DNA of 58,883 nt from Candidatus Pelagibacterales bacterium (GCA_002720535.1 PBIU01000009.1:1-58883), one strand, 5' to 3'; counted from the first letter of the stretch, positions 27,174 to 45,520 are shown. Numbers and translations: made by a program. Notes: generated by a model from the sequence alone, not told the origin.

Positions 27174-27218
27174 ATCTTTTTTTTTATGTACTCTAAGAAA
27201 TAAAATTTGGGATTAAAA

Positions 27219-27977: not shown

Positions 27978-27992
27978 TGTAATTATATAAAT

Positions 27993-28283: not shown

Positions 28284-28287
28284 TTAT

Positions 28288-28794
28288 TTAACTTAGTTTA
28301 GATTTAATCTGTAAAGACAATAAAGAAATCAAACAATATCCAGTAAAGTAATAAAAGCCAACCTCTAAAGTTGCATCTAACATATTAGATGCTTTACTTC
28401 CTAAATATGCAATAAATGCTCCAACAGCAAAGACGTCTGCCATAGACCATCTTCCTATTCTAAATATAAAGTTATGGGCAGATGATTTACCTGATATTTC
28501 TCCAAAAAAGAAAACCCATAAAATCACAACTCCTTTTAGCACAGGAATCATCACACTAAAAAATAATATTAAAAATGAAACTAAGTAATAACCGCCCTCA
28601 TATAATGTGTCTACGGCTTGTAAAATAGATTGCTTATATTTAAATACTTCTTGTCCTGCATATTCCGCAGAAATTGTCATCATTGGTTGAGTAACACCAA
28701 AATATAAAAGTAAAAAAGAAATTAGTAATAATATAAATGATGCCGTATTCCTAAAATTGAAAGGCACCATATTAAAATTGAATAAATTATTCAT
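28288..28794 (-). CDS. PqiA-family (paraquat-inducible protein A-like) integral membrane protein, single domain
   Basis: 168 aa, 4 TM segments. RIGRWSMADVFAVGAFIAYL matches the conserved GRWSM.DVF element of PqiA. Confidence 0.6.
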   Translation of the reverse strand: MNNLFNFNMVPFNFRNTASFILLLISFLLLYFGVTQPMMTISAEYAGQEVFKYKQSILQAVDTLYEGGYYLVSFLILFFSVMIPVLKGVVILWVFFFGEISGKSSAHNFIFRIGRWSMADVFAVGAFIAYLGSKASNMLDATLEVGFYYFTGYCLISLLSLQIKSKLS

Positions 28795-28884
28795 TTATTT
28801 TCCCCTATTAGCAATCATAATTTAACTAAGCACATTTAAGATAAAAAAGAAATAATTTACTTAAAATTTAATTTATTATAATAC

Positions 28885-28913
28885 TTGGCAAAAGTTATAT
28901 ACATTGCTATAGA
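28885..28913 (+). promoter_or_regulatory. Candidate sigma70-type promoter of tRNA-Asn
   Basis: TTGGCA (28885-28890), 17-nt spacer, TATAGA (28908-28913), about 11 nt before the mature tRNA 5' end. Confidence 0.35.
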
Positions 28914-28924
28914 CTACTTAGTGT

Positions 28925-28999
28925 TCCGCGGTAGCTCAGTGGTAGAGCAATCGGCTGTTAACCGATCGGTCGTAAGTTCGAATCTTACCCGCGGAGCCA
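28925..28999 (+). tRNA. tRNA-Asn (anticodon GUU)
   Basis: Hand-folded 75 nt. Acceptor TCCGCGG/CCGCGGA, D-arm GCTC-AGTGGTA-GAGC, anticodon stem ATCGG/CCGAT with loop CTGTTAA (GTT), T-arm GTAAG-TTCGAAT-CTTAC, discriminator G, encoded CCA. Confidence 0.95.
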
Positions 29000-29004
29000 T
29001 TTAA
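28949..29004 (+). repeat. attL-type direct repeat (3' 51 nt of tRNA-Asn plus 5 nt of flank)
   Basis: 56 nt, identical to 39252-39307 except for one position (G28996 vs A39299). Confidence 0.9.
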
Positions 29005-29057
29005 TTCCTTGATGTACCTAGGTTTATTGTAGTTAATAATTTTGCAAAATTTTCTAG

Positions 29058-29126
29058 GTGGCCAAAATGTGGCCAATGAAAAACTTAAAAAAAATAGGTG
29101 GCCAAAAGGTCAATCGGTTTTTTATA
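29058..29126 (+). repeat. Left-end GTGGCCAA motif array (candidate arm-type or iteron sites)
   Basis: GTGGCCAA at 29058, 29069 (11-bp phasing) and 29098. Block GGTGGCCAAAAGGTCAATCGGTTTTTTA has a counterpart at 39097-39129. The 18-mer TGGCCAAAATGTGGCCAA (29059-29076) is identical to 39131-39148. Confidence 0.6.
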
Positions 29127-29388
29127 GATAATTATTAAAAAAAACCCAGAAATCAGGAAAAAACACTATAAATTCCAAGGATATTCCATTTTAGTACACC
29201 ATCGAGGAAAATTATAAAAGCGCCTCATATTATCTTTATCTGTAGATATAATACCTTCTCTAAGAGTGCATCTTACACCTGTAAATATATTCTCTTTTAT
29301 ATATACTTCAATGTTACTAATTACTTCTTAGTAAATTTAGCTTACCATAAATTTATTAAATGTGAATGGGGAGAATAAAATCTAAAAT

Positions 29389-29417
29389 TTGACAGAACGT
29401 CTTTTTAAGATTAATAT
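29389..29417 (+). promoter_or_regulatory. Candidate promoter inside the island leader
   Basis: Consensus -35 TTGACA (29389-29394), 17-nt spacer, TAATAT (29412-29417). An intrinsic terminator follows within about 40 nt. Confidence 0.3.
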
Positions 29418-29432
29418 TAATTTTCAACATTG

Positions 29433-29464
29433 GTCTGTGAAATAAAATCACAGGCTTTTTTTTT
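29433..29464 (+). terminator. Intrinsic terminator-like hairpin plus T9
   Basis: Stem GTCTGTGA/TCACAGGC (8 bp including one G-U) at 29433-29440 / 29448-29455, 7-nt loop, then T9 (29456-29464). Confidence 0.5.
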
Positions 29465-29497
29465 GCGTGAATTGTAATTTTTTTTTGCAAGCAATGT

Positions 29498-29573
29498 CCA
29501 ATTCTCTTTCTCTAAATTTAAAAGCCTTCAATGGAATTGCAAAAGGCTTTTAAATTTAGAGAAAGAGAATTGG
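29498..29573. repeat. 31-bp perfect inverted repeat with a 14-nt spacer
   Basis: CCAATTCTCTTTCTCTAAATTTAAAAGCCTT (29498-28528 read as 29498-29528) is the exact reverse complement of 29543-29573. Verified base by base. Lies in ORF-free DNA. Confidence 0.9.
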
Positions 29574-29630
29574 GGTAACTCCCCATTATTTTTTCTTCTT
29601 ATTTTTCTCTCTGAATTTGCGAGCCATAAC

Positions 29631-29678
29631 TAATTATCTCTTAAAGAAAGAATATTATGATTTCTTTAAAGATAATTA
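29631..29678. promoter_or_regulatory. Imperfect inverted repeat (operator-like) just upstream of the first island ORF
   Basis: TAATTATCT(C)TTAAAGAAA (29631-29649) pairs with TTTCTTTAAAGATAATTA (29661-29678), 18 bp with one bulged C and an 11-nt spacer. Ends about 10 nt before the SD AGGAG of ORF 29699. Confidence 0.35.
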
Positions 29679-29698
29679 ATAACTAATAGGAGCACGCA

Positions 29699-29959
29699 AT
29701 GAAAACACTTCTTAAAGATATATCCAAAGATCAAATTATCTCTGTTGGTGATTTGAGTAAATACATAATACAAGATCGCAACAGGTCTATACAAGAATAC
29801 GTAAATGAGCAAGTTGCATTGAAACGACAAACACCCATGAAGTGTTGGTCGATGGATAACATCTTACAATTAGTTACTAATAAGTTTGGTGAAAGTGCAC
29901 ACGCTTTCGCTAGACGTTATCTCATTAAAGATATTTTTAACCTAACTGAATCTAAATAA
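29699..29959 (+). CDS. Hypothetical protein (island)
   Basis: 86 aa with a strong SD TAGGAGCACGCAATG. No recognisable family. Confidence 0.55.
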   Translation: MKTLLKDISKDQIISVGDLSKYIIQDRNRSIQEYVNEQVALKRQTPMKCWSMDNILQLVTNKFGESAHAFARRYLIKDIFNLTESK

Positions 29960-29972
29960 AGGAGAATAATCT

Positions 29973-30170
29973 ATGACTAAGAAAACACGCTTTTATATCG
30001 AATGCCCATACTCTGATAAAGACAAATGTAAAAAACTAGGTGGCTATTGGGATACATCAGCACGCAAGTGGTATGTACCTGAAGGTGTCGATACAGAACC
30101 TTTTAAAGAATGGTTCCCTGATGACATACCTTCAGAAAAAAAAAGTCTAGAAAACAGTATCTCGATGTAG
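29973..30170 (+). CDS. DUF5710-like module 1; 5' part of a gene apparently split by a frameshift
   Basis: 65 aa, SD AAGGAG. FYIECPYSDKDKCKKLGGYWDTSARKWYVPEGVDTEPFKEWFP resembles the small K.WYVP module found at N-termini of conjugative primase-type proteins (DUF5710, from memory). Confidence 0.6.
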   Translation: MTKKTRFYIECPYSDKDKCKKLGGYWDTSARKWYVPEGVDTEPFKEWFPDDIPSEKKSLENSISM

Positions 30171-30190
30171 ACTTTCGTGAATTTCGTCGA

Positions 30191-30595
30191 GTGAAAGAAC
30201 AAGGTGCTTTGTGGGATGATCATAAGAAACAATGGTTTATTACAGAGCACCATGACACTAAAGATTTTAAATGGTGGCTACCCTTCTATGTTGAAGATAG
30301 TTCAGAAGAATATGAGTTAGAAGAGCCAACCATTGAAGAACAAATAGAAGGAATAGAAGAATCTCTTAAGCTTCATGCTGAAGTAATAGTGGATATTCTT
30401 AAGGAAAAAGAAAAGGAAGATTATTATGTAGAGCAGGAAGAAACACCAAGAGAGGAGTATGCTCGAAAACTTCAGGAACTCTATGAAAGTTATGATGAGG
30501 ATATGGAGGCTTGGAGTAATACCAGTCGTTTAGATCCAGAATCTCTTGCTTTTCTAGATATGTCAGATGAGAATAGAGAGAAGATGATCAATTAG
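30191..30595 (+). CDS. DUF5710-like module 2 plus highly acidic tail; 3' part of the split gene
   Basis: The track starts at GTG 30191, but the frame is open from 30125 and encodes SRKQYLDVDFREFRRVKEQGALWDDHKKQWFITEHHDTKDFKWWLP. The module therefore begins upstream of any start codon. The C-terminal half is Glu/Asp-rich. Confidence 0.6.
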   Translation: MKEQGALWDDHKKQWFITEHHDTKDFKWWLPFYVEDSSEEYELEEPTIEEQIEGIEESLKLHAEVIVDILKEKEKEDYYVEQEETPREEYARKLQELYESYDEDMEAWSNTSRLDPESLAFLDMSDENREKMIN

Positions 30596-30611
30596 TATAA
30601 AGGAACAATTA

Positions 30612-30770
30612 ATGTATAGTAAAAAAGTTATAATTTTATGGATTATAATATTTGGAGGAATTGCTATTTTTTTAGAAACACAAAATGGATTAGTTTTTGA
30701 TATACTATTGTGGATTTTTACAATACTTTGTGGATTAAGTATTTATCAATTATACTTACGATTAAAATAA
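30612..30770 (+). CDS. Small 2-TM membrane peptide (52 aa), not in the ORF track
   Basis: Own translation: MYSKKVIILWIIIFGGIAIFLETQNGLVFDILLWIFTILCGLSIYQLYLRLK. SD AAGGAA about 7 nt upstream. Starts 17 nt after the stop of the previous ORF. Confidence 0.4.
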   Translation: MYSKKVIILWIIIFGGIAIFLETQNGLVFDILLWIFTILCGLSIYQLYLRLK

Positions 30771-30799
30771 ATAGAATAATTTCAACTAATATAATGAGA

Positions 30800-31273
30800 T
30801 TAGAAAAAACAGGGACTAATACTTACCCAATGTTTGGGTTCGCGTTTATCAATCCATGAAATAAAACATTGATAAACATCATTATTACTCAATCCACGAC
30901 TAATAAGAGAATAACTATCTAGATTATCCACATTGTTTTTTTTAAAAAAATTATATTGGTTTTTTAACCAATTTAAGTCTCTTTTTTGAAAATAAATGGT
31001 TTTTACCTTAAACTTATTTTTTACACTACGTAAACAACTAGTCTTAATTTTAGGTCTTTCAAAACCTAAAGTTCCATTAATTCTGGTAGAACTACTTAAT
31101 AGGTCTTTTGTACTAAATGTCATAGTGCTTGTAACCAAGCACTTAGCTCCACTAGAAGGAGAATCAACAAGTATTAATGCATTACTATTCCATCTAGCAA
31201 TGTTTCTATATTCTCCAAAAACTAGAGAAATATATGAGAAAAATAGAATAATAATTAAAGAGAATATTTTCAT
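30800..31273 (-). CDS. Exported hypothetical protein (4 Cys in the mature part)
   Basis: 157 aa. Signal peptide MKIFSLIIILFFSYISLVFG. No recognisable family. Confidence 0.55.
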   Translation of the reverse strand: MKIFSLIIILFFSYISLVFGEYRNIARWNSNALILVDSPSSGAKCLVTSTMTFSTKDLLSSSTRINGTLGFERPKIKTSCLRSVKNKFKVKTIYFQKRDLNWLKNQYNFFKKNNVDNLDSYSLISRGLSNNDVYQCFISWIDKREPKHWVSISPCFF

Positions 31274-31297
31274 ATTTAAATCTTTAATTAAAAATTA

Positions 31298-31477
31298 TTA
31301 TAGTATTTGAAAATAGTATAAAGGCCATATTAAACCTTGCAAAGTTGCAATGATTTCTCCAAATAACAACCATGCCATAAAACCTTTTTCAACAGCAAAA
31401 AGATAATTAAAATACAAGGCAGCAATAGCTGCACTTGCACCATATAAATATAATAAACCAATAATAATTTTTTCCAT
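31298..31477 (-). CDS. Small 2-TM membrane peptide (59 aa), not in the ORF track
   Basis: Own translation: MEKIIIGLLYLYGASAAIAALYFNYLFAVEKGFMAWLLFGEIIATLQGLIWPLYYFQIL. SD GGGGG 5 nt upstream. Sits between two same-strand ORFs. Confidence 0.4.
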   Translation of the reverse strand: MEKIIIGLLYLYGASAAIAALYFNYLFAVEKGFMAWLLFGEIIATLQGLIWPLYYFQIL

Positions 31478-31507
31478 GTAAACCCCCAGATTAAAATAAT
31501 AGTATTA

Positions 31508-31870
31508 TCAAGTTTCAGTATCTTTCCATTTTTCTAGTCTGTACTCTAAATGAGTATAAAGATCATCTCCAAGTTCCTTCCAATCTTCTTTTTTCCAATC
31601 TTTAGTGTCAACTTCTCCTTCTGATACTGCCTTGGAACCACCAAAAAATGTTTTTTTTCTATAAAATTTAGTTAAGATATCACATGGTACACAATATGAA
31701 TACCAATTGACTTCACCTGAATTAGTGCGAGAATTAGCTAATATGTGTGTTCTATTATCAAGAAACTTAATTTGGTCTTCGTAACTTAAAGAATTAAAAT
31801 TATCTACTATTTCTAATTTATTCTCTACTCCACAGCCAGGACAGTTTATAGTACCCAAATAAAAATCCAT
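31508..31870 (-). CDS. Zinc-ribbon hypothetical protein
   Basis: 120 aa. CPGC (aa 10-13) and CVPC (aa 60-63) form a four-Cys ribbon. Charged, W/K/E-rich C-terminus. Confidence 0.55.
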   Translation of the reverse strand: MDFYLGTINCPGCGVENKLEIVDNFNSLSYEDQIKFLDNRTHILANSRTNSGEVNWYSYCVPCDILTKFYRKKTFFGGSKAVSEGEVDTKDWKKEDWKELGDDLYTHLEYRLEKWKDTET

Positions 31871-32021
31871 ATTTAATTACCCCTAAATACTTCATAATAA
31901 ATGCTATCATAAAAATATAAGACCTCAAAATTTTTACATAAAATATCCATAATCTCTAAATCCTAATTTTATATCTCTTTAGTACAACTATAATTGTTAG
32001 TTGCAACGATTAACCATTAAG

Positions 32022-32079
32022 GACTTAAGAGCATGTATATAGTTGTTTATTCTTCTCCCCTAAATAATGCTCTTAAGTC
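32022..32079. repeat. Inverted repeat in the divergent intergenic region
   Basis: GACTTAAGAGCAT (32022-32034) and ATGCTCTTAAGTC (32067-32079), a 13-bp perfect stem extendable with wobbles, with a 32-nt spacer. Confidence 0.5.
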
Positions 32080-32111
32080 TTTAGCAACATTTACAACGAA
32101 AGGAACACATC

Positions 32112-32171
32112 ATGTGGTTTGAAGCCATCGCTTATTTCACTCTTGCCCTACTACAAATAAGTATTTTTTAA
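32112..32171 (+). CDS. Possible 19-aa hydrophobic leader or micro-peptide
   Basis: ATG behind AAGGAA. MWFEAIAYFTLALLQISIF. Ends 17 nt before ORF 32189. Very short, so weakly supported. Confidence 0.2.
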   Translation: MWFEAIAYFTLALLQISIF

Positions 32172-32188
32172 ATTACAAAGGACTCTCT

Positions 32189-32863
32189 ATGAAAAAATCT
32201 CTCATCTTACTTCCCTTACTTTACATATTTGCCATCGTAATATTTTTTATTCTTATGTCTCCAGCAATTAGTAAAGAGGTTGAGAATGATACAAAACAAT
32301 TAAGATCTCATAATGCAGAAGAGGATTATAGTTTTATAGAAGATCGTGTTGATGGATTATGGACTTTAGAAGATGGTATGAATAAAGGAGAATTTTTACT
32401 ATCTGTTAATGCAAAAAATACACATGCAGATAGATTGTACTTTCGTTTAATGCATGATTGCGAAACTATTAATGTATTAACAAGTTTATTAAGTATGAAA
32501 AATAATCCTAAGATTGAAAGGATTAAACAATTATATGTTAGCACACACTATTTAAAAGAATATATGCTAGTTCATGTGCCAGTAGTTAACAAACTTCCAA
32601 GTGAAGAATCAGAATATGATAATGATGCATGGATATTTTGGTTTGATTTAGGATGGTATACAGTTTCTACAATAAAAAATTGGCATAATAATATTAATGA
32701 AATCACATTCTCTATTCAACATGATGCTCTCTTTAAAGCTAATAACTATTTAGATAATACACAAAATTCTTGGAGCACCAATGGAATGATAGAAGCTATA
32801 GATAGAGCAGTAGGTGTATGTATAAAAACAAATATACGTAATCAAGAAGTGCTAAATAATTAA
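32189..32863 (+). CDS. Membrane-anchored or exported hypothetical protein
   Basis: 224 aa. N-terminal MKKSLILLPLLYIFAIVIFFILMSPAIS. No recognisable family. Confidence 0.55.
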   Translation: MKKSLILLPLLYIFAIVIFFILMSPAISKEVENDTKQLRSHNAEEDYSFIEDRVDGLWTLEDGMNKGEFLLSVNAKNTHADRLYFRLMHDCETINVLTSLLSMKNNPKIERIKQLYVSTHYLKEYMLVHVPVVNKLPSEESEYDNDAWIFWFDLGWYTVSTIKNWHNNINEITFSIQHDALFKANNYLDNTQNSWSTNGMIEAIDRAVGVCIKTNIRNQEVLNN

Positions 32864-32865
32864 AT

Positions 32866-33234
32866 ATGAAAAAATTAATTTATATAATTTCTACTATATT
32901 ATTTTTAATTAATTTAGTTTCTTGTAGTGAAGCCAAAGAAGACCATATTTGCGAAACAAAAACTTTAGGGATAGTTACAATTAAAGATGGTCTTATTAAT
33001 AATAAAGAAACTAAACACTATTATGAAGGTAGTGGTGTTTGTGCCTACTCTATACATTATTCTAAGATAAAAGATATTTATGTTTATTATTATCCTGGTG
33101 ATGAAGGATGTCATAATGGTGAATATGAACCTCCTCCTGATAACTTTGCTGGAAGAATAACTTTGACTAATAATCCTGATGAGAGATATGGTTGGATAGA
33201 TGCTATAGAACATGTCATGTGTTTTTATAAATAA
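32866..33234 (+). CDS. Lipoprotein, hypothetical
   Basis: 122 aa. Lipobox LVSC at aa 17-20 after a hydrophobic signal. 5 further Cys. Starts 2 nt after the upstream stop. Confidence 0.6.
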   Translation: MKKLIYIISTILFLINLVSCSEAKEDHICETKTLGIVTIKDGLINNKETKHYYEGSGVCAYSIHYSKIKDIYVYYYPGDEGCHNGEYEPPPDNFAGRITLTNNPDERYGWIDAIEHVMCFYK

Positions 33235-33251
33235 AATATGGGGAGTATAAG

Positions 33252-33449
33252 ATGAAGTATTTAATAATTGTAATTTTAAGTAGTTTTGTTGTTAGTCTAG
33301 CTCATGCTGATAAATATCAGATAGCAACTGCTGATAAGTATGAAGTTTGGGTGGTTAATACAAAAACTGGTCAAGTCAAGATTTGTTTTGATGCACGTAA
33401 TAAATTAGATGACCCACCAACGTGCTCAAAATGGTCTGATAAAGACTAA
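33252..33449 (+). CDS. Small exported protein (2 Cys)
   Basis: 65 aa. Signal peptide ending AHA-D. SD GGGGAG. Confidence 0.5.
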   Translation: MKYLIIVILSSFVVSLAHADKYQIATADKYEVWVVNTKTGQVKICFDARNKLDDPPTCSKWSDKD

Positions 33450-33470
33450 ATAAAATTAAATAGGAAAGTA

Positions 33471-34319
33471 ATGAAATATATCATCATAGTTTTATTCTGT
33501 TTTATGGGAGCTATAGGATTTTATCTTTATAATCAAGATACACCTGAACCTAATAATGAAGTCTCTCAAGCAGTAAAAGAAGATACACCTGAACCTAATA
33601 ATGAAGTCTCTCAAGCAGTAAAAGAAGATGGGGAGACTAGATATCAAAAAAATCATCGTATTTATTCTGAAGTCCTCAAGAAATGTTCTGATATAGAAAA
33701 CTATAAATTTAAGTCAGTTATTCATACAGGTTCAAACTTAGATCTTAACTGTTTAGAAATGGAATTAGCACCTCATAGTCAAGTAAAACCAAAGATACTA
33801 TCCACAAATGAAATAACTGGTAAGTTTGATGAAGCTTCAGTAACACTAATGGAAATAAAATCAGTCTTTGATATTTGTTCAGGAGAGTATGAGCCTTTTT
33901 GTAAAGATAATCTTATAATAGATAATGATAAATTCATTTATGTACGTACAAGTGATCAAGCAGAAACATCCCTCTTAAAAGAAAATACTTATCATCTTGT
34001 AAATAGAACGAGTACTTATAGAAGTAATTATATTTATTATGCAGATAAAAATAAATTAGTAGATCTAAGTTTTGGTGGCACTCTAGAATTTGAGGAAGAC
34101 ACTATAATAAAATATGGAGTCAAATCTTATTGGGATGGTGGAGGAGCTTTTTGGTATAATGTAAAAATAGATTATGAGGGAAACTTTATTGAACTTATTA
34201 ATGAAGAAGACTCAGACAATTGTTATCCCTTAGAAGAATTTGATCATAATAATGAAGAATTTAAGAATACTTTTAAACAGCAAGGTCTAAAAGAGTTGTG
34301 TGTTTGGGAAAATTACTAA
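33471..34319 (+). CDS. Membrane-anchored hypothetical protein with a duplicated 15-aa linker
   Basis: 282 aa. N-terminal TM helix, then DTPEPNNEVSQAVKE twice, then a Cys-containing globular part. Confidence 0.55.
   Translation: MKYIIIVLFCFMGAIGFYLYNQDTPEPNNEVSQAVKEDTPEPNNEVSQAVKEDGETRYQKNHRIYSEVLKKCSDIENYKFKSVIHTGSNLDLNCLEMELAPHSQVKPKILSTNEITGKFDEASVTLMEIKSVFDICSGEYEPFCKDNLIIDNDKFIYVRTSDQAETSLLKENTYHLVNRTSTYRSNYIYYADKNKLVDLSFGGTLEFEEDTIIKYGVKSYWDGGGAFWYNVKIDYEGNFIELINEEDSDNCYPLEEFDHNNEEFKNTFKQQGLKELCVWENY
33537..33626 (+). repeat. Perfect 45-bp tandem duplication (2 copies), in frame
   Basis: GATACACCTGAACCTAATAATGAAGTCTCTCAAGCAGTAAAAGAA at 33537-33581 and again at 33582-33626, followed by GAT. 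Confidence 0.95.
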
Positions 34320-34461
34320 ATAATTAATTCCTTTATTTAATCCTTGCTACAGATATTTATATAAATTGATATGATTATGTGCTTTATGAGGAAAAAAAAT
34401 ATCTTGAATATTTGTATTATTTCAAGTTTACTAAATGTTCCTACAATGAAAGTAAGCAGTT

Positions 34462-37400
34462 ATGCCTGATGTAGAAGATATTAATACTGATGAAGATAAA
34501 TTAAATGTAAGCAGCAAGAACAATTCAAGTTTTATTGATTCTTTAGCGAGATACTATAGTGAATTTTTATCTACAGATTTCAAAAAAGGAAGACTACCTA
34601 AAAGAAAATTTCAAATAAAAGATTCTAAAGGTAGAAGAAGCGGAATTCCATTATCAAAATATAAATCCTTTAAAACTAATTTAAGAAAAAAACTTATAAA
34701 AAATATTCAAAAAAATGATGCTTTTTCAATTAAGTTTAATGAACATAAATCAAAATTATCTATTGTTACTGAAAATGCTATAGAAGGTGCGATTAAAAAT
34801 ATCAGCACTAAAAATTTCGATACTAAAAATACACAATTAATAGAGAAATTTACAATAGATATAAACAAGAAAAATGCAGATATCGAAAAACTAATGAATA
34901 CATTTATTGAAGCTCTTCAAAATAATTTAAGTTTAGATATTCTAGCACCCCTTATAGAATTACTTGAACCTACTTTTAAAAAAACTGAACAAGATCTAAT
35001 TGATAGACTAATAAGTGTAGATAGCGAAATAACAAATTTATTCATAGAAAAAATTACTGAAGATTTACCTAGTGCAATACCAAAGATTATTACAGATAAT
35101 GACCCATCATTAATAGAACAAATTATAGATGAAAATTTTAATGAAAATTACATTAAAAAAAATTTAAAAGATTTTTTTAATGATTTTTCTGCTAATGACC
35201 TTTATTCCGAAATGCGTGAATTACAAACTGTTGAAAAATTAGATGATAACTTAGAATTTTATCTATATCTTGGGGAAATAAAGTTTAACTCTAATACATT
35301 TCCAATTTTTTATATTCCAATGGAGGTTGCTAATACTAAAGATAAAAAAACTATTTTAGAGTGTAAGTTAGATTCTAGGATATTAATAAATAAAAAAGCT
35401 ATAGATTTTATTGCAAGAGAAATTCAAGAAACAACTAAAACAAAAAGTGCTTCACCAATAAAAGAAAGAATAGTCTATTTAGATGCAGAAGATGTGATAT
35501 TTGAAAAAATAGACGCTATACTTCAAGAAATTTTAGCTTCTTTTAGCTTAAACGGTTATCAGTCTTTTGAAAATGAAACTAAAGAATTAAAAAATTCTAC
35601 AGCAACTATAAACACATCACTTTCAATATCATTATTTGATAAATCAGATGAATCAATGTTATCTGATTATGAAGAATTATTAGATAAAATTTTAAGAACT
35701 TCAGATGAATCTCCTCTTTTCAATTTTTTAACAAGTTTAATTGAAAGTTTTATTCACAAGAATCCTACTGATATTAGCGAAGGAATTTTAGACGAATGGG
35801 ATGAAACAAATATTACAGAACGTTTAGTATTTGACACTCCTCTACCTCTAGCTGAAGAGCAAAGAAAAATTCTTTTAGCACTTAATAATGAAAAATCTAA
35901 ATTTATAACAGTTGAAGGACCTCCCGGAACTGGAAAATCTCATACAATATCTGCAATAGCTTTCGAAGCTATTCTAAAAGGTAAAAAGATTTTAGTTCTA
36001 TCAGATAAAAAAGAAGCTTTAGATGTTGTACAAAATAAAATAAATGAAACTTTATCAAGAGTTAGACCAACAGATGACTTTATAAACCCTATATTAAGAT
36101 TAGGGAGAGCAGGTTCTAACTTTAGAAAATTAACTACAGGAAGAGCAATAGAAAACTTAAATATACAACACAGAGAATTTAAAAAACAAAGTCAGAAAAG
36201 AGAAAATCTATATAAAAATGCCGTTGATAACCTTAAGAGTAAAATATCTAACCATATAAAATATGCAAAAGACATAGATATGTCTAAAGTGACTAATTAT
36301 GAGTTAGATAGATTAGAATTTTTTAATGAATTTGATGATTATAAAAATTTAGAAAATGTCTTTGAAAATAATGATAATTTATATACGGACGCAATTGAAA
36401 ATTTAAAACACCTGGCAAATGTAAGAAATAAACTAAAAAAATATACTAAAAATTTTACAAAATTATTTCATAAGTTTGATAAAAATAAATTAGAATTTCT
36501 AAATTTTATGATATTTATTTCAGACTGTAAAAATACTAATACTAATAATTTTAATAATTTAGCGACCAAAGTAAATTCATCAAATTATAGTGATATTTTA
36601 AATTTCTCTAATAAGATAACCTTAAGTAAGGGAATGTTTGGATATTTTTTTTCAGGTACAAAAATTCAACTTATAAAAAATGATTTAAAAAATACACTCG
36701 GTATTAATTTTAATGGAACGCCTCAAAGTCTTATTCAAGAATTAGAAAAGATATATAATGATGCCAATTCTTTTTTTGCGAATTTAGAAAATAAAGGATG
36801 GAAAGATAAATTATTTTTATATCGAGAAATATTAGAACTAGATATTGACCTTAAAGAATTAGAAGAAGTAATTAAAACTTATAAACTTATTAATTCAAAA
36901 GATATAATTTATATTAAAGACCCATCTGAAATTATAGATATACTATGTGAAAATGATAGTGACAGTGGGTTATTTTTAGAAAGATTTCTAGAACTTCAAA
37001 ATACAAGAGATGAAATTTCTAAATCATTTTATTTTGATGATTATAATTATTTAGCTAGAAAACAAGAGCTTGAAAATTATAATGCTTTGAAATTAGCTAC
37101 AGAAATTGACTCTAGAGTAATTGACTTTGCACAAAATAAAAAAAATGATGCTAAAACTTTAAGTGATATTATAAGAAAAAAATTAAAATTTCCTAAAGAA
37201 AAATTTTCAATTTTATCACAAGCTTTCCCGTGTATGATTTGTTCATTAAGAGACTACGCAGAATATATCCCACTAGAAAAAGAACTTTTTGATATTATTA
37301 TTATCGATGAAGCATCACAAGTATCTATCGCCCAAGCATTGCCCGCAATAATTAGATCTAAGAAAATGGTAGTTATGGGCGATAGAAAGCAGTTTGGGAA

Positions 37401-39030
37401 TGTTAAAACTTCTCAAGCATCTAAAGAAATAAACAACTCTTATTTCACAGATGTTATGAAAGAATTGGATCACAAAGATAGTACAGAAGATGAAATTAAA
37501 GTTAAGGCTCAAGCATTAAATATAAGCTTCTCAGTTTTAGATTTTATGGAAAGGGTAAGTAATTTCAATATTGGCTTAAAGAAACACTTTCGTGGCTATC
37601 CTGAAATGATATCATTTTCATCAAAATATTTTTACGAAAATACTCTGCAGCCAATGAAGATTAGAGGTAAACCTCTATCTGAGGTTTTAGAATTTATTCA
37701 TATTAAACCAGATAGTATGTTTGATAAGATTAAAAATACAAATGAAAAAGAAGCAGATTTAATCTTAGAAAAAATAATAAAACAACTTGATGACGAGGAC
37801 TTTAGATCAGTGGCCGTGATAACTCCATTTACTGCGCAGCAAACTTATATAAGTAGAACAATATCAAATCATACAAGATATCAGGAAATTTTAGAAAAAT
37901 TAAAGTTTAGATGCTTTACTTTTGATTCGTGTCAGGGTGAAGAACGCGATATTATCTATTATAGCTTCGTTGCTAATGAACAAAGAGATATGCTTTGGTC
38001 AATTTTCCCTAAATACTTGCATCAACAAGATGAAGATGAATTAGATAGAAACCTGAAAATGCAAAGATTAAATGTAGGTTTTTCAAGAGGTAAAGAAAAG
38101 CTAATTTTCATCCATTCAAAACCTATAAATGAACTTAAATCATGTTTAAGAGAGGCTCTTAATCACTATTCCACTATAGTAAATAATGCCTATGAACTTC
38201 CGTCTGAGGACAAACTTGATAAAAATTCTCCTGCAGAAAAAAAAGTTCTTCGCTGGTTAGAAAGCGCACCTATTATAAGACAATATCAGCCTGAAATTGA
38301 TCCTCAATTTAAAATAGGTGACTATTTAAAATCTTTAGATAAAAGTTATGATCATCCGGCATACAGAGTTGATTTTTTACTAAGGTTTTTTATTGATAAT
38401 AAGCAATACGATATAATAATTGAATATGATGGATTTGAATACCACTTTAAAAACCATGAAGATATTGATGCAGGTAATTGGGAACATTATTTAAGAGATC
38501 AAGATATTGAGCGTGAGAAAGTACTTGAATCATATGGGTATAAAACATTAAGAATAAATAGATTTAATATTGGTAAAGATCCAATTTTAGAATTAAATAA
38601 AAGAATTGAAAATTTACTAAATGAATTTAAAGATAATGGCGAAGCATTAATTAAAAGTGTTGTAGAAAACACTAATATTGCAGTTGAAGGCATAGCTACT
38701 GGAGACATAAGAGTCTGTAAAAAATGTAATCAAAATAAACCAGCAAAAGAATTTGAAAATCCTGAGAGAAAAAGTGGATACAATAGATATTGCTCTTCAT
38801 GTTCTCCTAGAAAGAGAACAAAAAAAAAAATAAATAGAAGCAAGAATACTAATAAACCTGGCCAAAAAAGATGTAAAAATTGTAAAAAGTTTTTTCCTGA
38901 TTCAGAATTTATAGATAATACAAACATTTCTGGCAAAAGAGTTCTTTGCTCTAAATGTAAAACTATTTCAAATAGAAAAAGAGAAGAACAAGCTAGAATA
39001 TGGCATAGCAGAGGAAGAAGATACCGTTAA
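34462..39030 (+). CDS. 1,522-aa fusion: DUF4011-like N-terminal region + SF1 (Upf1/DNA2-like, AAA_11/AAA_12) helicase + Vsr/DUF559 (MTES_1575-type) endonuclease + two C-terminal CxxC zinc ribbons
   Basis: GPPGTGKS (nt 35917-35940), IIIDEASQ (D at nt 37306), GDRKQ, TFDSCQGEERD, RLNVGFSRGK, YRVDFLL...IIIEYDGFEYH...YGYKTLRINRF, CKKC..CSSC and CKNC..CSKC. See findings. Confidence 0.85.
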   Translation: MPDVEDINTDEDKLNVSSKNNSSFIDSLARYYSEFLSTDFKKGRLPKRKFQIKDSKGRRSGIPLSKYKSFKTNLRKKLIKNIQKNDAFSIKFNEHKSKLSIVTENAIEGAIKNISTKNFDTKNTQLIEKFTIDINKKNADIEKLMNTFIEALQNNLSLDILAPLIELLEPTFKKTEQDLIDRLISVDSEITNLFIEKITEDLPSAIPKIITDNDPSLIEQIIDENFNENYIKKNLKDFFNDFSANDLYSEMRELQTVEKLDDNLEFYLYLGEIKFNSNTFPIFYIPMEVANTKDKKTILECKLDSRILINKKAIDFIAREIQETTKTKSASPIKERIVYLDAEDVIFEKIDAILQEILASFSLNGYQSFENETKELKNSTATINTSLSISLFDKSDESMLSDYEELLDKILRTSDESPLFNFLTSLIESFIHKNPTDISEGILDEWDETNITERLVFDTPLPLAEEQRKILLALNNEKSKFITVEGPPGTGKSHTISAIAFEAILKGKKILVLSDKKEALDVVQNKINETLSRVRPTDDFINPILRLGRAGSNFRKLTTGRAIENLNIQHREFKKQSQKRENLYKNAVDNLKSKISNHIKYAKDIDMSKVTNYELDRLEFFNEFDDYKNLENVFENNDNLYTDAIENLKHLANVRNKLKKYTKNFTKLFHKFDKNKLEFLNFMIFISDCKNTNTNNFNNLATKVNSSNYSDILNFSNKITLSKGMFGYFFSGTKIQLIKNDLKNTLGINFNGTPQSLIQELEKIYNDANSFFANLENKGWKDKLFLYREILELDIDLKELEEVIKTYKLINSKDIIYIKDPSEIIDILCENDSDSGLFLERFLELQNTRDEISKSFYFDDYNYLARKQELENYNALKLATEIDSRVIDFAQNKKNDAKTLSDIIRKKLKFPKEKFSILSQAFPCMICSLRDYAEYIPLEKELFDIIIIDEASQVSIAQALPAIIRSKKMVVMGDRKQFGNVKTSQASKEINNSYFTDVMKELDHKDSTEDEIKVKAQALNISFSVLDFMERVSNFNIGLKKHFRGYPEMISFSSKYFYENTLQPMKIRGKPLSEVLEFIHIKPDSMFDKIKNTNEKEADLILEKIIKQLDDEDFRSVAVITPFTAQQTYISRTISNHTRYQEILEKLKFRCFTFDSCQGEERDIIYYSFVANEQRDMLWSIFPKYLHQQDEDELDRNLKMQRLNVGFSRGKEKLIFIHSKPINELKSCLREALNHYSTIVNNAYELPSEDKLDKNSPAEKKVLRWLESAPIIRQYQPEIDPQFKIGDYLKSLDKSYDHPAYRVDFLLRFFIDNKQYDIIIEYDGFEYHFKNHEDIDAGNWEHYLRDQDIEREKVLESYGYKTLRINRFNIGKDPILELNKRIENLLNEFKDNGEALIKSVVENTNIAVEGIATGDIRVCKKCNQNKPAKEFENPERKSGYNRYCSSCSPRKRTKKKINRSKNTNKPGQKRCKNCKKFFPDSEFIDNTNISGKRVLCSKCKTISNRKREEQARIWHSRGRRYR

Positions 39031-39087
39031 ACAAGTTAAAACCAGAGCATTAAGATTAGAAAAGATTATGCGAACTGGACAACTGCT
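39029..39087 (+). repeat. Right-arm segment with a homologue at 39719-39766
   Basis: AAACAAGTTAAAACCAGAGC...AGATTATGCGAACTGGACAAC versus AAACAAGTTAATACTAGAGC...AGATTATGCGAACTGAGCAAC. Hand alignment shows about an 11-nt indel. Confidence 0.6.
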
Positions 39088-39097
39088 TTAATAGCTT

Positions 39098-39148
39098 GGT
39101 GGCCAATTTTTATGGGCAATCGGTTTTTTACTGGCCAAAATGTGGCCA
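39098..39148 (+). repeat. Right-end GTGGCCAA motif array
   Basis: GTGGCCAA at 39098 and 39141, CTGGCCAA at 39130 (11-bp phasing with 39141), CAATCGGTTTTTTA at 39116-39129. Mirrors the left-end array. Confidence 0.6.
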
Positions 39149-39251
39149 ACAAATACGGCAATGTGTGGACATAATTGGGAACACATGTTACTCTGTGAGC
39201 AAGGCATATTCTGACTTTTGAGGATTTGCAAGGGTTACAGAGCAAGGTATT

Positions 39252-39307
39252 AATCGGCTGTTAACCGATCGGTCGTAAGTTCGAATCTTACCCGCGGAAC
39301 CATTTAA
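39252..39307 (+). repeat. attR-type direct repeat (tRNA-Asn 3' half)
   Basis: 55/56 identity to 28949-29004. Lacks the tRNA 5' part, so it is not a functional tRNA. Confidence 0.9.
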
Positions 39308-39421
39308 CTAAAAAATTATCTCATTAAAATAAAAAATAAGTATACAAATTACTTATTTGTGTTTTAATTTTTAAAATAATATTAAATTTGATTAAATAAA
39401 TATTTATAGAGGAAATGTGAA

Positions 39422-39658
39422 ATGACAAATATAATTAAAATGAAAACGGGCGCATGGGCTAACCCAAAAATTATTGCTAAAGGTAACGTAAGTTCTGTTA
39501 AAAAAATGGGCGCGTTTTATGTTTTTACTATAAAACTAGATAGCAACGATATCAGAGAATACTCTTTCACTTCATCTAATAAAGCTGAGCATATGAGAAA
39601 AATTATGATTGGACACCTAGAAGAAAAATTCAGAAAAGAATTAAAATCTTATAAGTAA
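39422..39658 (+). CDS. Hypothetical protein (in the remnant)
   Basis: 78 aa with SD AGAGGAAA. No recognisable family. Confidence 0.45.
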   Translation: MTNIIKMKTGAWANPKIIAKGNVSSVKKMGAFYVFTIKLDSNDIREYSFTSSNKAEHMRKIMIGHLEEKFRKELKSYK

Positions 39659-39718
39659 ATTGAAATACTAAAATAATGGAGCAAAGCTGCAAACGAAATG
39701 AAGGATAGCCTATTAGCT

Positions 39719-39766
39719 AAACAAGTTAATACTAGAGCTTAGATTATGCGAACTGAGCAACAGATT
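39719..39766 (+). repeat. Homologue of the island right-arm segment 39029-39087
   Basis: See 39029-39087. Here it lies only about 7 nt before the tRNA pseudo-fragment. Confidence 0.6.
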
Positions 39767-39772
39767 TCACAG

Positions 39773-39843
39773 TCAGTGCTAGAGTAATCGGCTGTTAACC
39801 TATCGGTCGTAAGTTCGATTATTACCCGCAGATACATTTAATT
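39773..39843 (+). pseudogene. tRNA-Asn pseudo-fragment (tRNA positions ~12-75 plus flank, degenerate)
   Basis: TCAGTGCTAGAGTAATCGGCTGTTAACCTATCGGTCGTAAGTTCGATTATTACCCGCAGATACATTTAATT aligns to 28936-29006 with about 8 mismatches. The 5' acceptor strand is absent, and the T-stem and acceptor pairing are broken. Confidence 0.7.
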
Positions 39844-39856
39844 TTATATATTAATA

Positions 39857-40378
39857 TTATTTGGCTGAAACTACTCTGACATAGCCATCATTAGATCTTA
39901 CTATATTAATGTTGCTTCCATCAGAAATTATATCAGATTCGTCAGAAATAGCCTGAACAATTACTATTGTATCTGATGCATTTGAACAAGTACTTGATAC
40001 GTTTTCACAATTTATATTGATTGTATATTCTACTCCGTCGCTTTTATTTCTCATTTCTTCTAAAGCTGTACCAGCCATTGCTCCTCCTATTACCGATATA
40101 ATTATAGCTGCTTCTTCTAAAACATTATCTCCACCAGTAAGGCCATATGTAGTAGCACCAGCTAGTGTAGCACCTATAGCAGCCCCCCAATATTGAGTAT
40201 CTTTTTTTAAGCCTGCGATGACTATTTGTCTCGATGCAACAATAACTCCAGGAGTAGTTTCCATAATAATACCAACTTCTTCAGGGTTATAAACAGATGA
40301 TTTTTTATCTACACAACCAGACAGAATAATAAAGAAAACTAAAAATAAAAATAAATAAACTCTATTGAAAATAATCAT
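39857..40378 (-). CDS. Glycine-zipper outer-membrane lipoprotein (SlyB / 17-kDa-antigen-like)
   Basis: ATG 40378 lies behind GAGGGAG (the track starts at 40405). Lipobox LSGC. Glycine zippers GAAIGATLAGATTYGLTGG and VIGGAMAGTA. Confidence 0.65.
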   Translation of the reverse strand: MIIFNRVYLFLFLVFFIILSGCVDKKSSVYNPEEVGIIMETTPGVIVASRQIVIAGLKKDTQYWGAAIGATLAGATTYGLTGGDNVLEEAAIIISVIGGAMAGTALEEMRNKSDGVEYTININCENVSSTCSNASDTIVIVQAISDESDIISDGSNINIVRSNDGYVRVVSAK

Positions 40379-40425
40379 AATTAAAAAAACTCCCTCAATA
40401 AGCAATCACAGTCTAAAATAAAAAT

Positions 40426-40974
40426 TTAGAAACCAGAATCATAAAACCTATTAACCTCATCTAGCAATTCTAAGGTTTGATATACAATTTGTAAGTATAT
40501 TAAACCATCAATTCCTTCATTACATTGAATTCTAAATAAATTTTCACTAATATCATATGTAGAATATGAGTAAATATTAAAATCTGTATAACTATCTTCA
40601 TAGTAATCAAAAGATAAGGAATATTTTCTTTCAAATATACTTATTATGGAGGGCACTACCCTATCATTACAATTAGAAATCGTATCTAATTGTTTTTCGC
40701 CATAAATTGAATGAATTCTGTTATTATTATCTAGAGTAATAGTATAAAAATCTATTTGAGGACTTTTCTTCTTTATAACAGCAGTTATATCTACATCATA
40801 AAAATTATCTATAGTTTCAGCATTCTTATACTTTTCATTATCTATCATTTTTAAACTAAAATGACTTTGTACTTGATCTAATAATTTAAGACCGAACAGT
40901 TCAGTAAATTCTTCAGCTCTTAAATGACCTATAATACTAAAAATACATATAATTACAAAGGTATATAACCGCAT
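40426..40974 (-). CDS. Exported hypothetical protein
   Basis: ATG 40974 (MRLYTFVIICIFSIIGHLRA signal) is preferred over TTG 40998. No recognisable family. Confidence 0.5.
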   Translation of the reverse strand: MRLYTFVIICIFSIIGHLRAEEFTELFGLKLLDQVQSHFSLKMIDNEKYKNAETIDNFYDVDITAVIKKKSPQIDFYTITLDNNNRIHSIYGEKQLDTISNCNDRVVPSIISIFERKYSLSFDYYEDSYTDFNIYSYSTYDISENLFRIQCNEGIDGLIYLQIVYQTLELLDEVNRFYDSGF

Positions 40975-41027
40975 AAATACATTATACCTTATTTGCAAAA
41001 AAAAATAAATTTCTATAAAATAATTTT

Positions 41028-41906
41028 ATGAAATTCTTTTTAATAATTTACTTTTTAATAACTATTAATTTATCCTCTAATGCTTTAGCCGATATAAAAT
41101 TAGATCAAGACTTTCCAATAGAAATGCAAGGTATCTGGAGTAGTGATTGTAGCGCTACCAATAATATAAATTCCTTAATAATATATGATTATGGCTCTCT
41201 TTACTTAGATTATGGAGATTATAATTACGTATCACTGAGTGTTTCCAAAACAACAAATTTTAATTCATGGACAGTATATGAATGGTCTTCTAATGATATG
41301 GATAAAGAAAAATATTTTTTAAAATTACAAAATAACAAATTAATTAAAAAATATCCTCCAAATAATTGGAATGAAATTGATTATGAATTTTTAAATGATT
41401 CTACATCTCAAAATATCACTTTATATGAAAAGTGTAATTTAATACCTACTGTTTTAAGTTTATTTTATGGACCTATTATAAATTTCAGCGATAGTAATGT
41501 TCCTAAATTATGCAATTCATATATATCTCAAGATAAAAACATGAGAAATAAATGTAAAATAAGCTTAATGAATTATTTTGATGTAAGTAAAGATTTAGAA
41601 TTATCTGCTGCTGAAATTACAAGAGCTATTAAATTACTTGTTCTGTATTTATACATGAACAACGCTGATCAAATAAATCCAGAAACAGTTCCAATATCTA
41701 AATTATTAAGTTTTACAATTGTTCCAAGTCTTTCTCAATTATTTTTATTAAACTATGATTTTGATAATTCCCAAACTTTATCTACTGAGGAAATAAGACT
41801 TGCCTATTTTGATTTAGATGAAGGAAAAAAAGTATTAAATCAAAATTACCAAAATCTAGATATTAAAGAAATTATAGACTCAATTACAGATTTACTAAAT
41901 TACTAA
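41028..41906 (+). CDS. Exported protein with two EF-hand-like Ca-binding loops
   Basis: 292 aa with a signal peptide. Loops DVSKDLELSAAE and DFDNSQTLSTEE fit D-x-[DNS]-x-[DNS]-x(2)-[ILV]-x(3)-E. Confidence 0.55.
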   Translation: MKFFLIIYFLITINLSSNALADIKLDQDFPIEMQGIWSSDCSATNNINSLIIYDYGSLYLDYGDYNYVSLSVSKTTNFNSWTVYEWSSNDMDKEKYFLKLQNNKLIKKYPPNNWNEIDYEFLNDSTSQNITLYEKCNLIPTVLSLFYGPIINFSDSNVPKLCNSYISQDKNMRNKCKISLMNYFDVSKDLELSAAEITRAIKLLVLYLYMNNADQINPETVPISKLLSFTIVPSLSQLFLLNYDFDNSQTLSTEEIRLAYFDLDEGKKVLNQNYQNLDIKEIIDSITDLLNY

Positions 41907-42015
41907 TAATAAAAACTCTCTAAAAAAAAATAAGAATTACTCTCAATAAATTTTATATTTGATAAAAATTCATATCTAATTCAAAATAATAAAAAATTTA
42001 CTTAGGGATATCAAA

Positions 42016-42777
42016 GTGAGATTAGAAGGAAAAGTTGCATTTATTACAGGAGGTGGTGGAGGAATAGGACGAGCTACAGCAGAACGCTTTACTGAAGAAG
42101 GTGCAAAAGTCTGTATCGCTGAAATTGACTCAACTGTAGGTAAGAACGCGGCAGAATCAGCTAAATTAAAAGGGAAGAACGGAGGAGATGCATTTTTTAT
42201 TGAGACAAATGTAAGTGAAGAAGAAAGTGTAAAAAATGCAATAAATGAAACCATAAAACATTATGGTAAAATTGATATATTGCATAACAATGCCGGAGGC
42301 TCTACTTTACAAGATGGCCCTGTAACAGAAGCACCTCTTGAAGAATTTTGGAGATGTATTAATCTTGATTTATTAGGCACATTTCTTTGTTCTAAATATG
42401 TAATTCCTGAAATTATTAAGTCTGGAGGAGGCTCTGTAATTAATATGTCATCTAATGTAGCTTTGATGGCCTTACCTGGAAGAGATTGTTATACAGCTGT
42501 AAAAGGAGCAATTGCATCCATGACTAGGTCAATGGCAGTTGAATATGCTCCAAATAAAATTAGAGTTAATGCTATCGCTCCCTCAGTTACTTTATCAGAG
42601 CGTGTAAAAAAATTATTAGAAAATAGTCCAGAAATACAAACGATTTCTGATAAACATTTACTTGGTTTAGGAGAACCAATACATGTAGCAGATCTAGCCG
42701 TTTATTTAGCCTCAGATGAATCCAATATTACTACTGGGCAAGTTATTTCTGTTGATAGTGGAGTCACCATTAACTAA
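42016..42777 (+). CDS. Short-chain dehydrogenase/reductase
   Basis: 253 aa, GTG start behind AGGGA. TGGGGGIGRATA, NNAG, YTAVKGA. Confidence 0.85.
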   Translation: MRLEGKVAFITGGGGGIGRATAERFTEEGAKVCIAEIDSTVGKNAAESAKLKGKNGGDAFFIETNVSEEESVKNAINETIKHYGKIDILHNNAGGSTLQDGPVTEAPLEEFWRCINLDLLGTFLCSKYVIPEIIKSGGGSVINMSSNVALMALPGRDCYTAVKGAIASMTRSMAVEYAPNKIRVNAIAPSVTLSERVKKLLENSPEIQTISDKHLLGLGEPIHVADLAVYLASDESNITTGQVISVDSGVTIN

Positions 42778-42800
42778 TTAATTTCAATAGTGAGGCATAT

Positions 42801-45485: not shown

Positions 45486-45520
45486 AGTTTTTCCTAAAAA
45501 TTTATAAGTATGATGATAAT

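Follow-up and report, generated by a model that had tools for sequence, protein, structure and literature searches.

An uncharacterised helicase-nuclease-zinc-ribbon protein family with a candidate role in defence, and its member on a mobile tRNA-Asn island in SAR11

What role might be played by a gene of 4.6 kb, a considerable size within a streamlined SAR11 genome, when the island that carries it occurs in one strain and is precisely missing from another that is 99.5 % identical? The question arises from a 58,883-nucleotide (nt) stretch of DNA from Candidatus Pelagibacterales bacterium (GCA_002720535.1 PBIU01000009.1:1-58883), here called the window and numbered from its first letter, in which one open reading frame (ORF) of 1,522 amino acids (aa) encodes a predicted helicase fused to a nuclease and to zinc ribbons. 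The protein is identical to NCBI entry MBJ86503.1, which is labelled 'hypothetical protein' and comes from a Pelagibacterales (SAR11) metagenome-assembled genome (MAG). The host belongs to the Pelagibacterales (SAR11), as do the HtpG and GlmS proteins encoded on the flanks. No marine bacterium is more abundant or more streamlined than SAR11, whose genomes are usually said to contain few defence systems. Single-protein helicase-nuclease fusions recur as anti-phage effectors, and to our knowledge how they recognise an invader is largely unknown.

Based on the architecture of the protein and the neighbourhoods of its homologues, we consider it probable, at roughly 55 %, that this is a stand-alone effector that acts on DNA and is directed against phages or other mobile genetic elements (MGEs). 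Counted in favour of a defence role were the intact and conserved helicase motifs and nuclease residues, the fact that the best matches among profile hidden Markov models (HMMs) of defence proteins are to helicase-nuclease families (PDC-S37, MkoA/C, Hhe and ProA), and the patchy spread of the family together with its island and defence neighbours and an empty site in a closely related strain. An initial annotation, made from the sequence alone, had read the gene as an Hhe/Nhi-like single-gene effector, an interpretation that is right in kind and wrong in the family to which it assigned the protein. Helicase-nuclease fusions are common; what distinguishes this one is its SAR11 host, the polymorphism of its island and an orphan domain at its N-terminus.

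Architecture of the protein and its family

The ORF is uninterrupted and is the largest in the window, the runner-up being 651 aa, as the initial annotation had it. The motifs named there were all found at the same residues when the translation was checked, and the proposed helicase-nuclease-zinc-ribbon organisation was upheld by motif location, Pfam matches and profile homology of the nuclease. The gene and its parts, all on the + strand, are as follows.

34462..39030, single unbroken ORF, 1,522 aa
34462..35871, family-specific N-terminal domain, aa 1-470, defined by conservation and by an AlphaFold2 (AF2) model
35872..36141, first part of RecA1, including Walker A GPPGTGKS (486-493) and motif Ia, aa 471-560, Pfam AAA_11/AAA_30, at least 90 % conserved
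36142..37161, large insert within RecA1, aa 561-900, found in all family members, variable in sequence with a conserved GYxF at 727-730
37162..38136, remainder of RecA1 (Walker B DEASQ, GDRKQ) and RecA2 (motifs IV-VI), aa 901-1225, Pfam AAA_12 and PDB sequence matches
38209..38616, Vsr/MTES_1575-type PD-(D/E)xK nuclease with D1304, E1321, D1323 and H1328, aa 1250-1385, residues at least 90 % conserved or invariant, hhalign
38716..38802, zinc ribbon 1, CxxC-x21-CxxC, family-wide, aa 1419-1447, cysteines at least 90 % conserved
38820..38830, A11 homopolymer between the two ribbons
38872..38958, zinc ribbon 2, a minority feature, aa 1471-1499, from motif location and ribbon counts among family members
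38959..39027, Lys/Arg-rich C-terminal tail, aa 1500-1522, from composition, with similar basic ends in multi-ribbon homologues

Beyond Walker A, the helicase motifs were located on the translation at aa 946-953 (IIIDEASQ, Walker B), 973-977 (GDRKQ), 1043-1058 (FRGYPEMISFSSKYFY), 1153-1163 (TFDSCQGEERD) and 1202-1211 (RLNVGFSRGK). Pfam AAA_11 (aa 465-666, 55.9 bits) and AAA_12 (aa 1034-1217, 67.8 bits) both exceed the gathering score of 27. Motifs I, Ia, II, III, IV, V and VI are intact and at least 90 % conserved, as is expected of a Upf1-like superfamily 1B (SF1B) helicase, and a PDB sequence search returned only Upf1-like helicases, namely IGHMBP2, Upf1/Nam7 and Sen1-like proteins, as weak matches (best E 5.5e-8). 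These eukaryotic enzymes are the closest solved structures by sequence and are alike in their helicase motifs but, unlike the SAR11 protein, have no fused nuclease, no such N-terminal domain and no zinc-ribbon tail. The insert at aa 561-900 is without any Pfam match. It had been described as rich in Asn and Lys, and it is indeed rich in N, K and L, but the enrichment is modest, at 13/12/11 % for residues 560-900 vs 8/11/10 % over the whole protein.

The nuclease motifs AEKKVLRWL, YRVDFLL and IIIEYDGFEYH lie at aa 1258-1266, 1301-1307 and 1318-1328, respectively. Pfam MTES_1575 matches aa 1294-1380 (E 6.8e-5) with 23.3 bits, under its gathering score of 38.2, and a profile of the family's nuclease aligned with the MTES_1575 region of two plasmid-borne DUF4011/MTES_1575/DUF3320 proteins at a probability of 90 % (hhalign, E 1.5e-6). 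An AF2 model of aa 1228-1522 reached a mean predicted local distance difference test score (pLDDT) of 89.5, and a Foldseek search of the PDB with this C-terminal 295-aa model gave no significant match (E ≥0.045), the top matches being BamHI, Kpn2I, SwaI, the La Crosse virus endonuclease and Bax1. As the structural matches are only suggestive, the identity of the nuclease is based on sequence profiles, and we accept the region as a Vsr/MTES_1575-type nuclease because of its profile homology to MTES_1575 and its intact putative catalytic residues.

The cysteines of the two CxxC-x21-CxxC modules are C1419/1422/1444/1447 and C1471/1474/1496/1499. Of 120 family members, 88 carry exactly one ribbon, 17 lack ribbons and a few bear two to four in tandem, the multi-ribbon homologues terminating in basic tails; in the SAR11 protein, aa 1410-1522 contain 17 % K and 13 % R. 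The ribbons have no significant Pfam match, with Stc1 at E 0.29 and DUF6510/DUF7685 at E ~2e-3 remaining below threshold, and some homologues carry Zn_ribbon_Top1 instead.

Variants of the A11 tract with 10 or 12 A residues shorten the protein to 1,456 and 1,458 aa, respectively. Metagenome proteins that are otherwise 100 % identical end in ...TKKK (1,456 aa, fitting A10) or in ...TKKKNK (1,458 aa, fitting A12), and the latter form is on three contigs of up to 100 kb. As the full-length and both shorter forms are seen, all three reading frames occur. The variants could reflect slipped-strand switching of ribbon 2 and the basic tail, or could be due to assembly error.

The N-terminal domain was modelled with a pLDDT of 82 and a predicted template modelling score (pTM) of 0.66. 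The model consists of a long helical bundle (~101-260), an alpha/beta module (~264-412) and helices leading into RecA1. Three motifs stand out as conserved, YYxxFLxTDFKKxxxPKR at 31-48, a hairpin FYLxxGE...FPxFYIP at 266-286 and an acidic LFDKSDESxxxDYE at 391-404. The initial annotation had found this part (aa 1-~480) unrecognisable, and so it proved in Pfam, the PDB and BFVD, although it is conserved within the family. A HORMA fold was considered and rejected, the Foldseek probability being ≤0.12 with a root mean square deviation of ~18 Å and no PDB or BFVD match below E 0.02.

Over 100 homologues of full length (1,385-1,636 aa), sharing 37-54 % identity over 94-100 % of the query, were recovered in a large protein search, and we therefore assign the protein to a distinct, uncharacterised and mostly marine family with members of ~1,450 aa. 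The family comprises about 600 clusters at 50 % identity. When the profile of the N-terminal domain was compared with 1.84 billion representative proteins, only 600 matched at E ≤1e-3, and the best 150 of these 600 look like whole or fragmentary members of the family. In an alignment of 119 homologues, the N-terminal 470 aa, all helicase motifs, D1304, E1321, D1323, H1328 and the cysteines of ribbon 1 are conserved throughout, and the region 560-860 is kept in every member with a variable sequence. As the N-terminal domain and the ribbon are conserved across homologues, they are family features and not the divergence of one protein. Hence, the 'divergent termini' that had been noted do differ from those of Hhe but are not peculiar to this protein, ribbon 2 alone being a minority feature. 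Other members have additional extensions (TPR, GYF_2, Zn_ribbon_Top1 or DUF5710).

The spread of the family is patchy and covers four phyla. Members were found in the Pelagibacterales, in one Flavobacteriaceae MAG, in Gracilibacteria, on one Priestia megaterium plasmid and, among the gammaproteobacteria, in Cand. Njordibacter, Haliea, Pseudohaliea, Amphritea, SCGC AAA007-O20 and a Pseudomonadales MAG. A pattern-based scan of 185,579 species-representative GTDB genomes yielded 9 loci, the best 47 % identical. The proteins most similar to that of SAR11, at 47-54 % identity, are in part from other phyla, which indicates horizontal transfer. The exact protein was found in 28 blocks of a contig collection, and four contigs listed there, including Tara Oceans assemblies, share its context.

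Relationship to known helicase-nuclease systems

The best PADLOC matches were PDC-S37 (144.8 bits), MkoA, MkoC and Hhe (67.5 bits), and the best NCBIfam matches were ProA (138 bits, where 1,500 are required) and Hhe (88.8 bits, where 2,000 are required). Matches to defence models are confined to the helicase, with the nuclease added in the case of PDC-S37, and reach roughly one tenth or less of the scores of true members; six homologues gave the same pattern. For calibration, a DUF4011/MTES_1575/DUF3320 protein from a Klebsiella plasmid was scored in the same way and reached 1,182.8 bits with PDC-S37, over profile positions 9-1531, and 600.8 bits with Hhe. PDC-S37 is therefore a Hhe-like family, and the SAR11 protein is a member of neither.

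Hhe, reportedly introduced as a defence system by Gao and colleagues in 2020, was the nearest relative proposed at the outset. Its models (NCBIfam NF042953 and PADLOC PDLC02194) describe a similar single large polypeptide, in which AAA_11/AAA_12 with a long insert between Walker A and B are followed by an MTES_1575/Vsr nuclease, but the SAR11 protein is ~400 aa shorter, has another N-terminal domain and ends in a zinc-ribbon tail. No Pfam match to DUF3320 was found in the protein, and zinc ribbons occupy the C-terminus instead. Identity with Hhe was rejected, given 88.8 vs 2,000 bits, a match restricted to profile positions 1258-1496, and the lack of both DUF4011 and DUF3320. Nor did the wider assignment to Hhe/Nhi-like proteins hold, as the Hhe, PDC-S37, ProA, Mokosh and Nhi models all failed.

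The assignment had leaned on a supposed DUF4011 core at aa ~265-300. DUF4011 was absent from the Pfam matches of the protein at E ≤10 and from those of 120 homologues and six remote members. Using hhalign, the N-terminal domain was compared with two DUF4011 profiles, one of 2 sequences and one of 122 built from homologues of the Klebsiella protein; a deeper, 224-sequence profile of the domain was also used, with ten column-shuffled DUF4011 alignments as controls. With the 122-sequence profile the scores were 19.8-20.7 (P ~0.09-0.13; 20.7 and P 0.089 for the 224-sequence query) and those of the shuffled controls 17.7-22.0, so that the likeness at aa 264-289 is at the level of the controls. The alignment is collinear (FYLYLGEIKF..FPIFYIPMEV vs LFLAVGFLKW..APLILLPIQL, and PLPLAEEQ vs LPLPADSSQ), and a remote structural kinship is possible. 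However, with Pfam, hhalign, a transitive search and Pfam scans of the remote members all giving no support, homology to DUF4011 was rejected as unproven.

With PDC-S37, a PADLOC candidate system and the best match there, residues 917-1398 align to profile positions 912-1350, covering the C-terminal half of the helicase and the nuclease. The score of 144.8 bits (117-140 for the homologues) is nevertheless far from the 1,182.8 of a true member for this 1,550-position profile. ProA (NCBIfam NF058533, 'anti-phage protein ProA') has a similar helicase core (E 2.4e-40), but the 138 bits stand against 1,500 and the match is limited to positions 1276-1516 of 1,903. No paper on PDC-S37 or ProA was found. 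The Nhi model did not match the protein at E ≤1 and reached ~25 bits with homologues, in the Walker A region only; the nuclease of Nhi is N-terminal to the helicase, an order that is reversed in the SAR11 protein. A further protein of similar size, with helicase and nuclease in the same order and a defence-island context, is the 1,576-aa 'AAA domain-containing protein' of Acinetobacter plasmid p3ABAYE (WP_000653919.1). It scores 157 bits with the HMM of the SAR11 protein's family, with nothing significant in the N-terminal domain, and is a separate family. Its gene (L027:2638-7368, A. baumannii AYE) lies directly downstream of BREX-1 pglZ-brxL. With 229.6 bits for PDC-S37 and 124.3 for Hhe it too is below member level, and it seems to represent another unnamed helicase-nuclease lineage.

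The Mokosh proteins MkoA and MkoC are alike at the level of the helicase (118-128 bits, E 1e-34 to 1e-38). However, the match is confined to that domain, the effector of the SAR11 protein is Vsr-like, and Pfam found no PLD domain in the protein or in the island. In CoCoNuT systems, Walker A of the Upf1-like helicase CnuH is followed by a large helical insertion and, in type III-B, a Vsr-like nuclease is directly fused to the helicase (PMC11090510). By this published description, the SAR11 protein resembles type III-B CnuH in both features, but its island has no genes for McrB/McrC (CnuB/CnuC) or a coiled-coil CnuA, and a winged helix-turn-helix N-terminus was not detected. An McrB-like gene lies ~9 kb from one homologue (L004), an association that is not conserved. 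Overall, the family appears to share a helicase-Vsr core with Hhe, PDC-S37, ProA and type III-B CnuH and to have an N-terminal domain and a tail of its own; the core is thus retained while both flanking modules are replaced.

These comparisons bear on the nucleic acid that is attacked. A variant of the defence role would be RNA surveillance, as proposed for CnuH, in which the Vsr-like domain would act as an RNase and the helicase would track RNA, either transcripts of phages or translation complexes that have stalled. The nearest solved relatives by sequence, IGHMBP2, Upf1 and Sen1-like proteins, are RNA or RNA/DNA helicases, MkoA/MkoC are among the best PADLOC matches, and RNA targeting has been argued for Upf1-like helicases with an insertion and a fused Vsr-like nuclease (PMC11090510). 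Pfam scans found no CSD, YTH, SmpB-like or other RNA-binding domain in the SAR11 protein, and single-stranded DNA (ssDNA) is also a substrate of Upf1-like helicases. Vsr/MTES_1575/DUF559 nucleases, moreover, are characterised as DNA endonucleases. We regard RNA surveillance as unlikely.

For an effector acting on DNA, the parts can be arranged in a plausible sequence of events. The zinc ribbon or ribbons and the Lys/Arg-rich tail would bind nucleic acid. An ATP-driven translocase is predicted because Walker A and B and motifs III-VI are conserved and, by analogy with Upf1, IGHMBP2 and Dna2, the SF1B helicase would move 5'->3' along the ssDNA (or RNA) of the invader. The tethered Vsr-like nuclease would then cut the tracked molecule endonucleolytically. 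The best candidate for a sensor of the trigger, or for an autoinhibitor that restrains the enzyme on self nucleic acid, is the N-terminal domain, which is conserved, orphan and immediately ahead of RecA1; this orphan domain of 460 aa may be a new sensing or regulatory module.

A mobile island and the neighbourhoods of homologues

The initial annotation had the gene as the terminal cargo of an island integrated at a tRNA-Asn gene. This is borne out by a 56-nt direct repeat and by an empty site in a 99.5 % identical strain. The elements concerned are as follows.

28925..28999, + strand, intact tRNA-Asn (GTT), the integration target, ARAGORN and Rfam tRNA (73.8 bits)
28949..29004, + strand, left 56-nt direct repeat, att-like, 3' half of tRNA-Asn, from a repeat search
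29005..39251, no strand assigned, island of 10.3 kb without an integrase, delimited by the empty-site contig L026
39252..39307, + strand, right 56-nt direct repeat, a tRNA remnant 98 % identical to the left copy, Rfam 26.4 bits (sub-threshold)

ARAGORN made two tRNA-Asn calls, and only that at 28925-28999 is genuine according to Rfam (73.8 vs 26.4 bits). The helicase-nuclease gene is the last gene of the segment bounded by the repeats, and no ORF or Pfam match corresponding to an integrase was found within 29005-39251. An empty site was sought in a metagenome collection by searching for a junction of the intact tRNA with the right flank, which turned up in one contig (L026). It is 99.5 % identical to window positions 23785-29004 and 98.6-99.5 % identical to 39252-46356, and the two alignments overlap by exactly one copy of the repeat, joining 29004 to 39252. 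As L026 lacks exactly the 10.3 kb between the repeats, near-identical strains are polymorphic for the presence or absence of the island, and the island is mobile.

This polymorphism speaks against a housekeeping enzyme of DNA repair or recombination, in the manner of Dna2 or AddAB. Dna2 does couple an SF1B helicase with a PD-(D/E)xK-type nuclease, as the SAR11 protein appears to, and one homologue (L002) lies between polA and other core genes. However, the gene is missing from the 99.5 % identical strain, the family is as rare as 9 loci in the 185,579 genomes scanned, and it has no conserved neighbourhood and is carried on islands and plasmids. Such a role is very improbable.

In all eight loci inspected, the gene stands singly and without a conserved partner, and in 6 of 15 loci a tRNA gene lies no more than ~4 kb away. 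The neighbours are as follows.

L001, integrase, AEP primase and HNH genes
L002, housekeeping genes, with tRNA-Arg 17 nt downstream
L004, McrB-like gene, SNase, HIT and MazG
L005 (Amphritea), duplicated tRNA-Thr, Mrr, resolvase and integrase
L022, ParAB, RES, NYN, integrase and patatin with SMODS
L023, integrase, SAVED and DncV-like CBASS, and HTH/M78, directly upstream, with tRNA-Val downstream
L024, CcdAB
L025, an integrase island

In Amphritea (L005/L014) the gene follows two tRNA-Thr copies separated by 2 kb, suggestive of a further island flanked by tRNA genes, and in Gamma proteobacterium SCGC AAA007-O20 (L013) the homologue is ~4 kb from a tRNA-Asn (at 6047-6122). The prediction that homologues would be patchily distributed, and not universally syntenic housekeeping genes, is in agreement with these single genes, spread over four phyla with integrase, tRNA, defence and toxin-antitoxin neighbours. 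The neighbourhoods fit cargo of variable islands associated with defence and speak against a housekeeping role.

Carriage on islands and plasmids also raises the question of whether the protein serves the element, either by processing or replicating the excised island or by attacking competing plasmids or satellites rather than phages. The ParAB context of L022, the Priestia plasmid and the AEP primase near L001 would suit such a role, as would the fact that the island has no integrase of its own, and DUF5710, found in two small ORFs of the island, is fused to one family member. Across the inspected loci, however, genes for replication, transfer or integration show no conserved synteny with it, and the pairing of nuclease and helicase without relaxase or Rep motifs is atypical for element replication. 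We judge service to the element to be improbable.

The anti-phage or anti-MGE effector, which we prefer, has to be set against several results that weigh on the other side. At member level, no defence HMM in PADLOC or NCBIfam matched either the protein or the six homologues. A Pfam scan of the remaining island ORFs found no recognisable defence genes. The neighbourhood evidence comes from the eight inspected loci, a small sample with no enrichment statistic, and the L002 homologue is alone amid housekeeping genes (polA and other core genes), beside a tRNA-Arg. A sensing role for the N-terminal domain is likewise without help from relatives, none being significant in PDB structures (best E 0.035), in BFVD, in PDB sequences searched by profile or in Pfam at E ≤10.

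A bolder proposal, which we put forward tentatively and hold to be possible but doubtful, is that the protein is the founding member of a new single-protein immunity family, made up of an orphan sensor or regulator, a Upf1-like helicase, a nuclease of the Vsr type and a variable array of ribbons, and carried on a mobile island that segregates in a natural SAR11 population, with a tail that may be switched by slippage at the A11 tract. If true, this would be direct evidence of a horizontally mobile, possibly phase-variable antiviral defence in SAR11, for which direct evidence of defence systems and of their horizontal transfer is said to be lacking (preprint, bioRxiv 10.64898/2025.12.11.693642).

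Other features of the island

Among the other island genes, one may be connected with the enzyme.

29973..30170, + strand, island ORF of 65 aa with DUF5710 (Pfam 1.3e-18; BLASTP 4e-19 to the corresponding domain of P0112)

A second small DUF5710 ORF lies at 30191-30595 (Pfam E 1.4e-5). The family member P0112, from another organism, has a DUF5710 domain as a C-terminal fusion (residues 1483-1524) that is 52 % identical to the first of these ORFs. Because of this fusion, a Rosetta-stone argument hints that DUF5710 proteins may work with the helicase-nuclease enzyme.

Just within the two ends of the island, at 29055-29110 and 39099-39150, GGTGGCCAAAAKGT / CTGGCCAAAATGTGGCCA occurs in copies next to CAATCGGTTTTTTA, and these repeats may serve a recombinase as arm-type sites or be the element's terminal repeats. 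The non-coding left part of the island contains a perfect inverted repeat (29498-29573), with arms of 31 nt and a spacer of 14 nt, which attracts spurious Rfam matches to microRNA families. Scans for promoters and terminators gave counts equal to those from shuffled sequence in this AT-rich DNA.

Between 32189 and 34319, four successive island ORFs (224, 122, 65 and 282 aa) have N-termini resembling signal peptides or lipoboxes and no significant Pfam match, and they may encode surface proteins that are additional cargo of the island. The one at 33471-34319, predicted to encode a secreted protein without a family, contains a perfect 45-nt tandem duplication (33535-33624) that repeats the peptide DTPEPNNEVSQAVKE. 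Outside the island, L026 is without 160 bp found at window positions 39676-39835 and has ~1.5 kb extra near 46.3 kb (about 46323-46356) relative to the window; the two strains thereby differ in further small indels.

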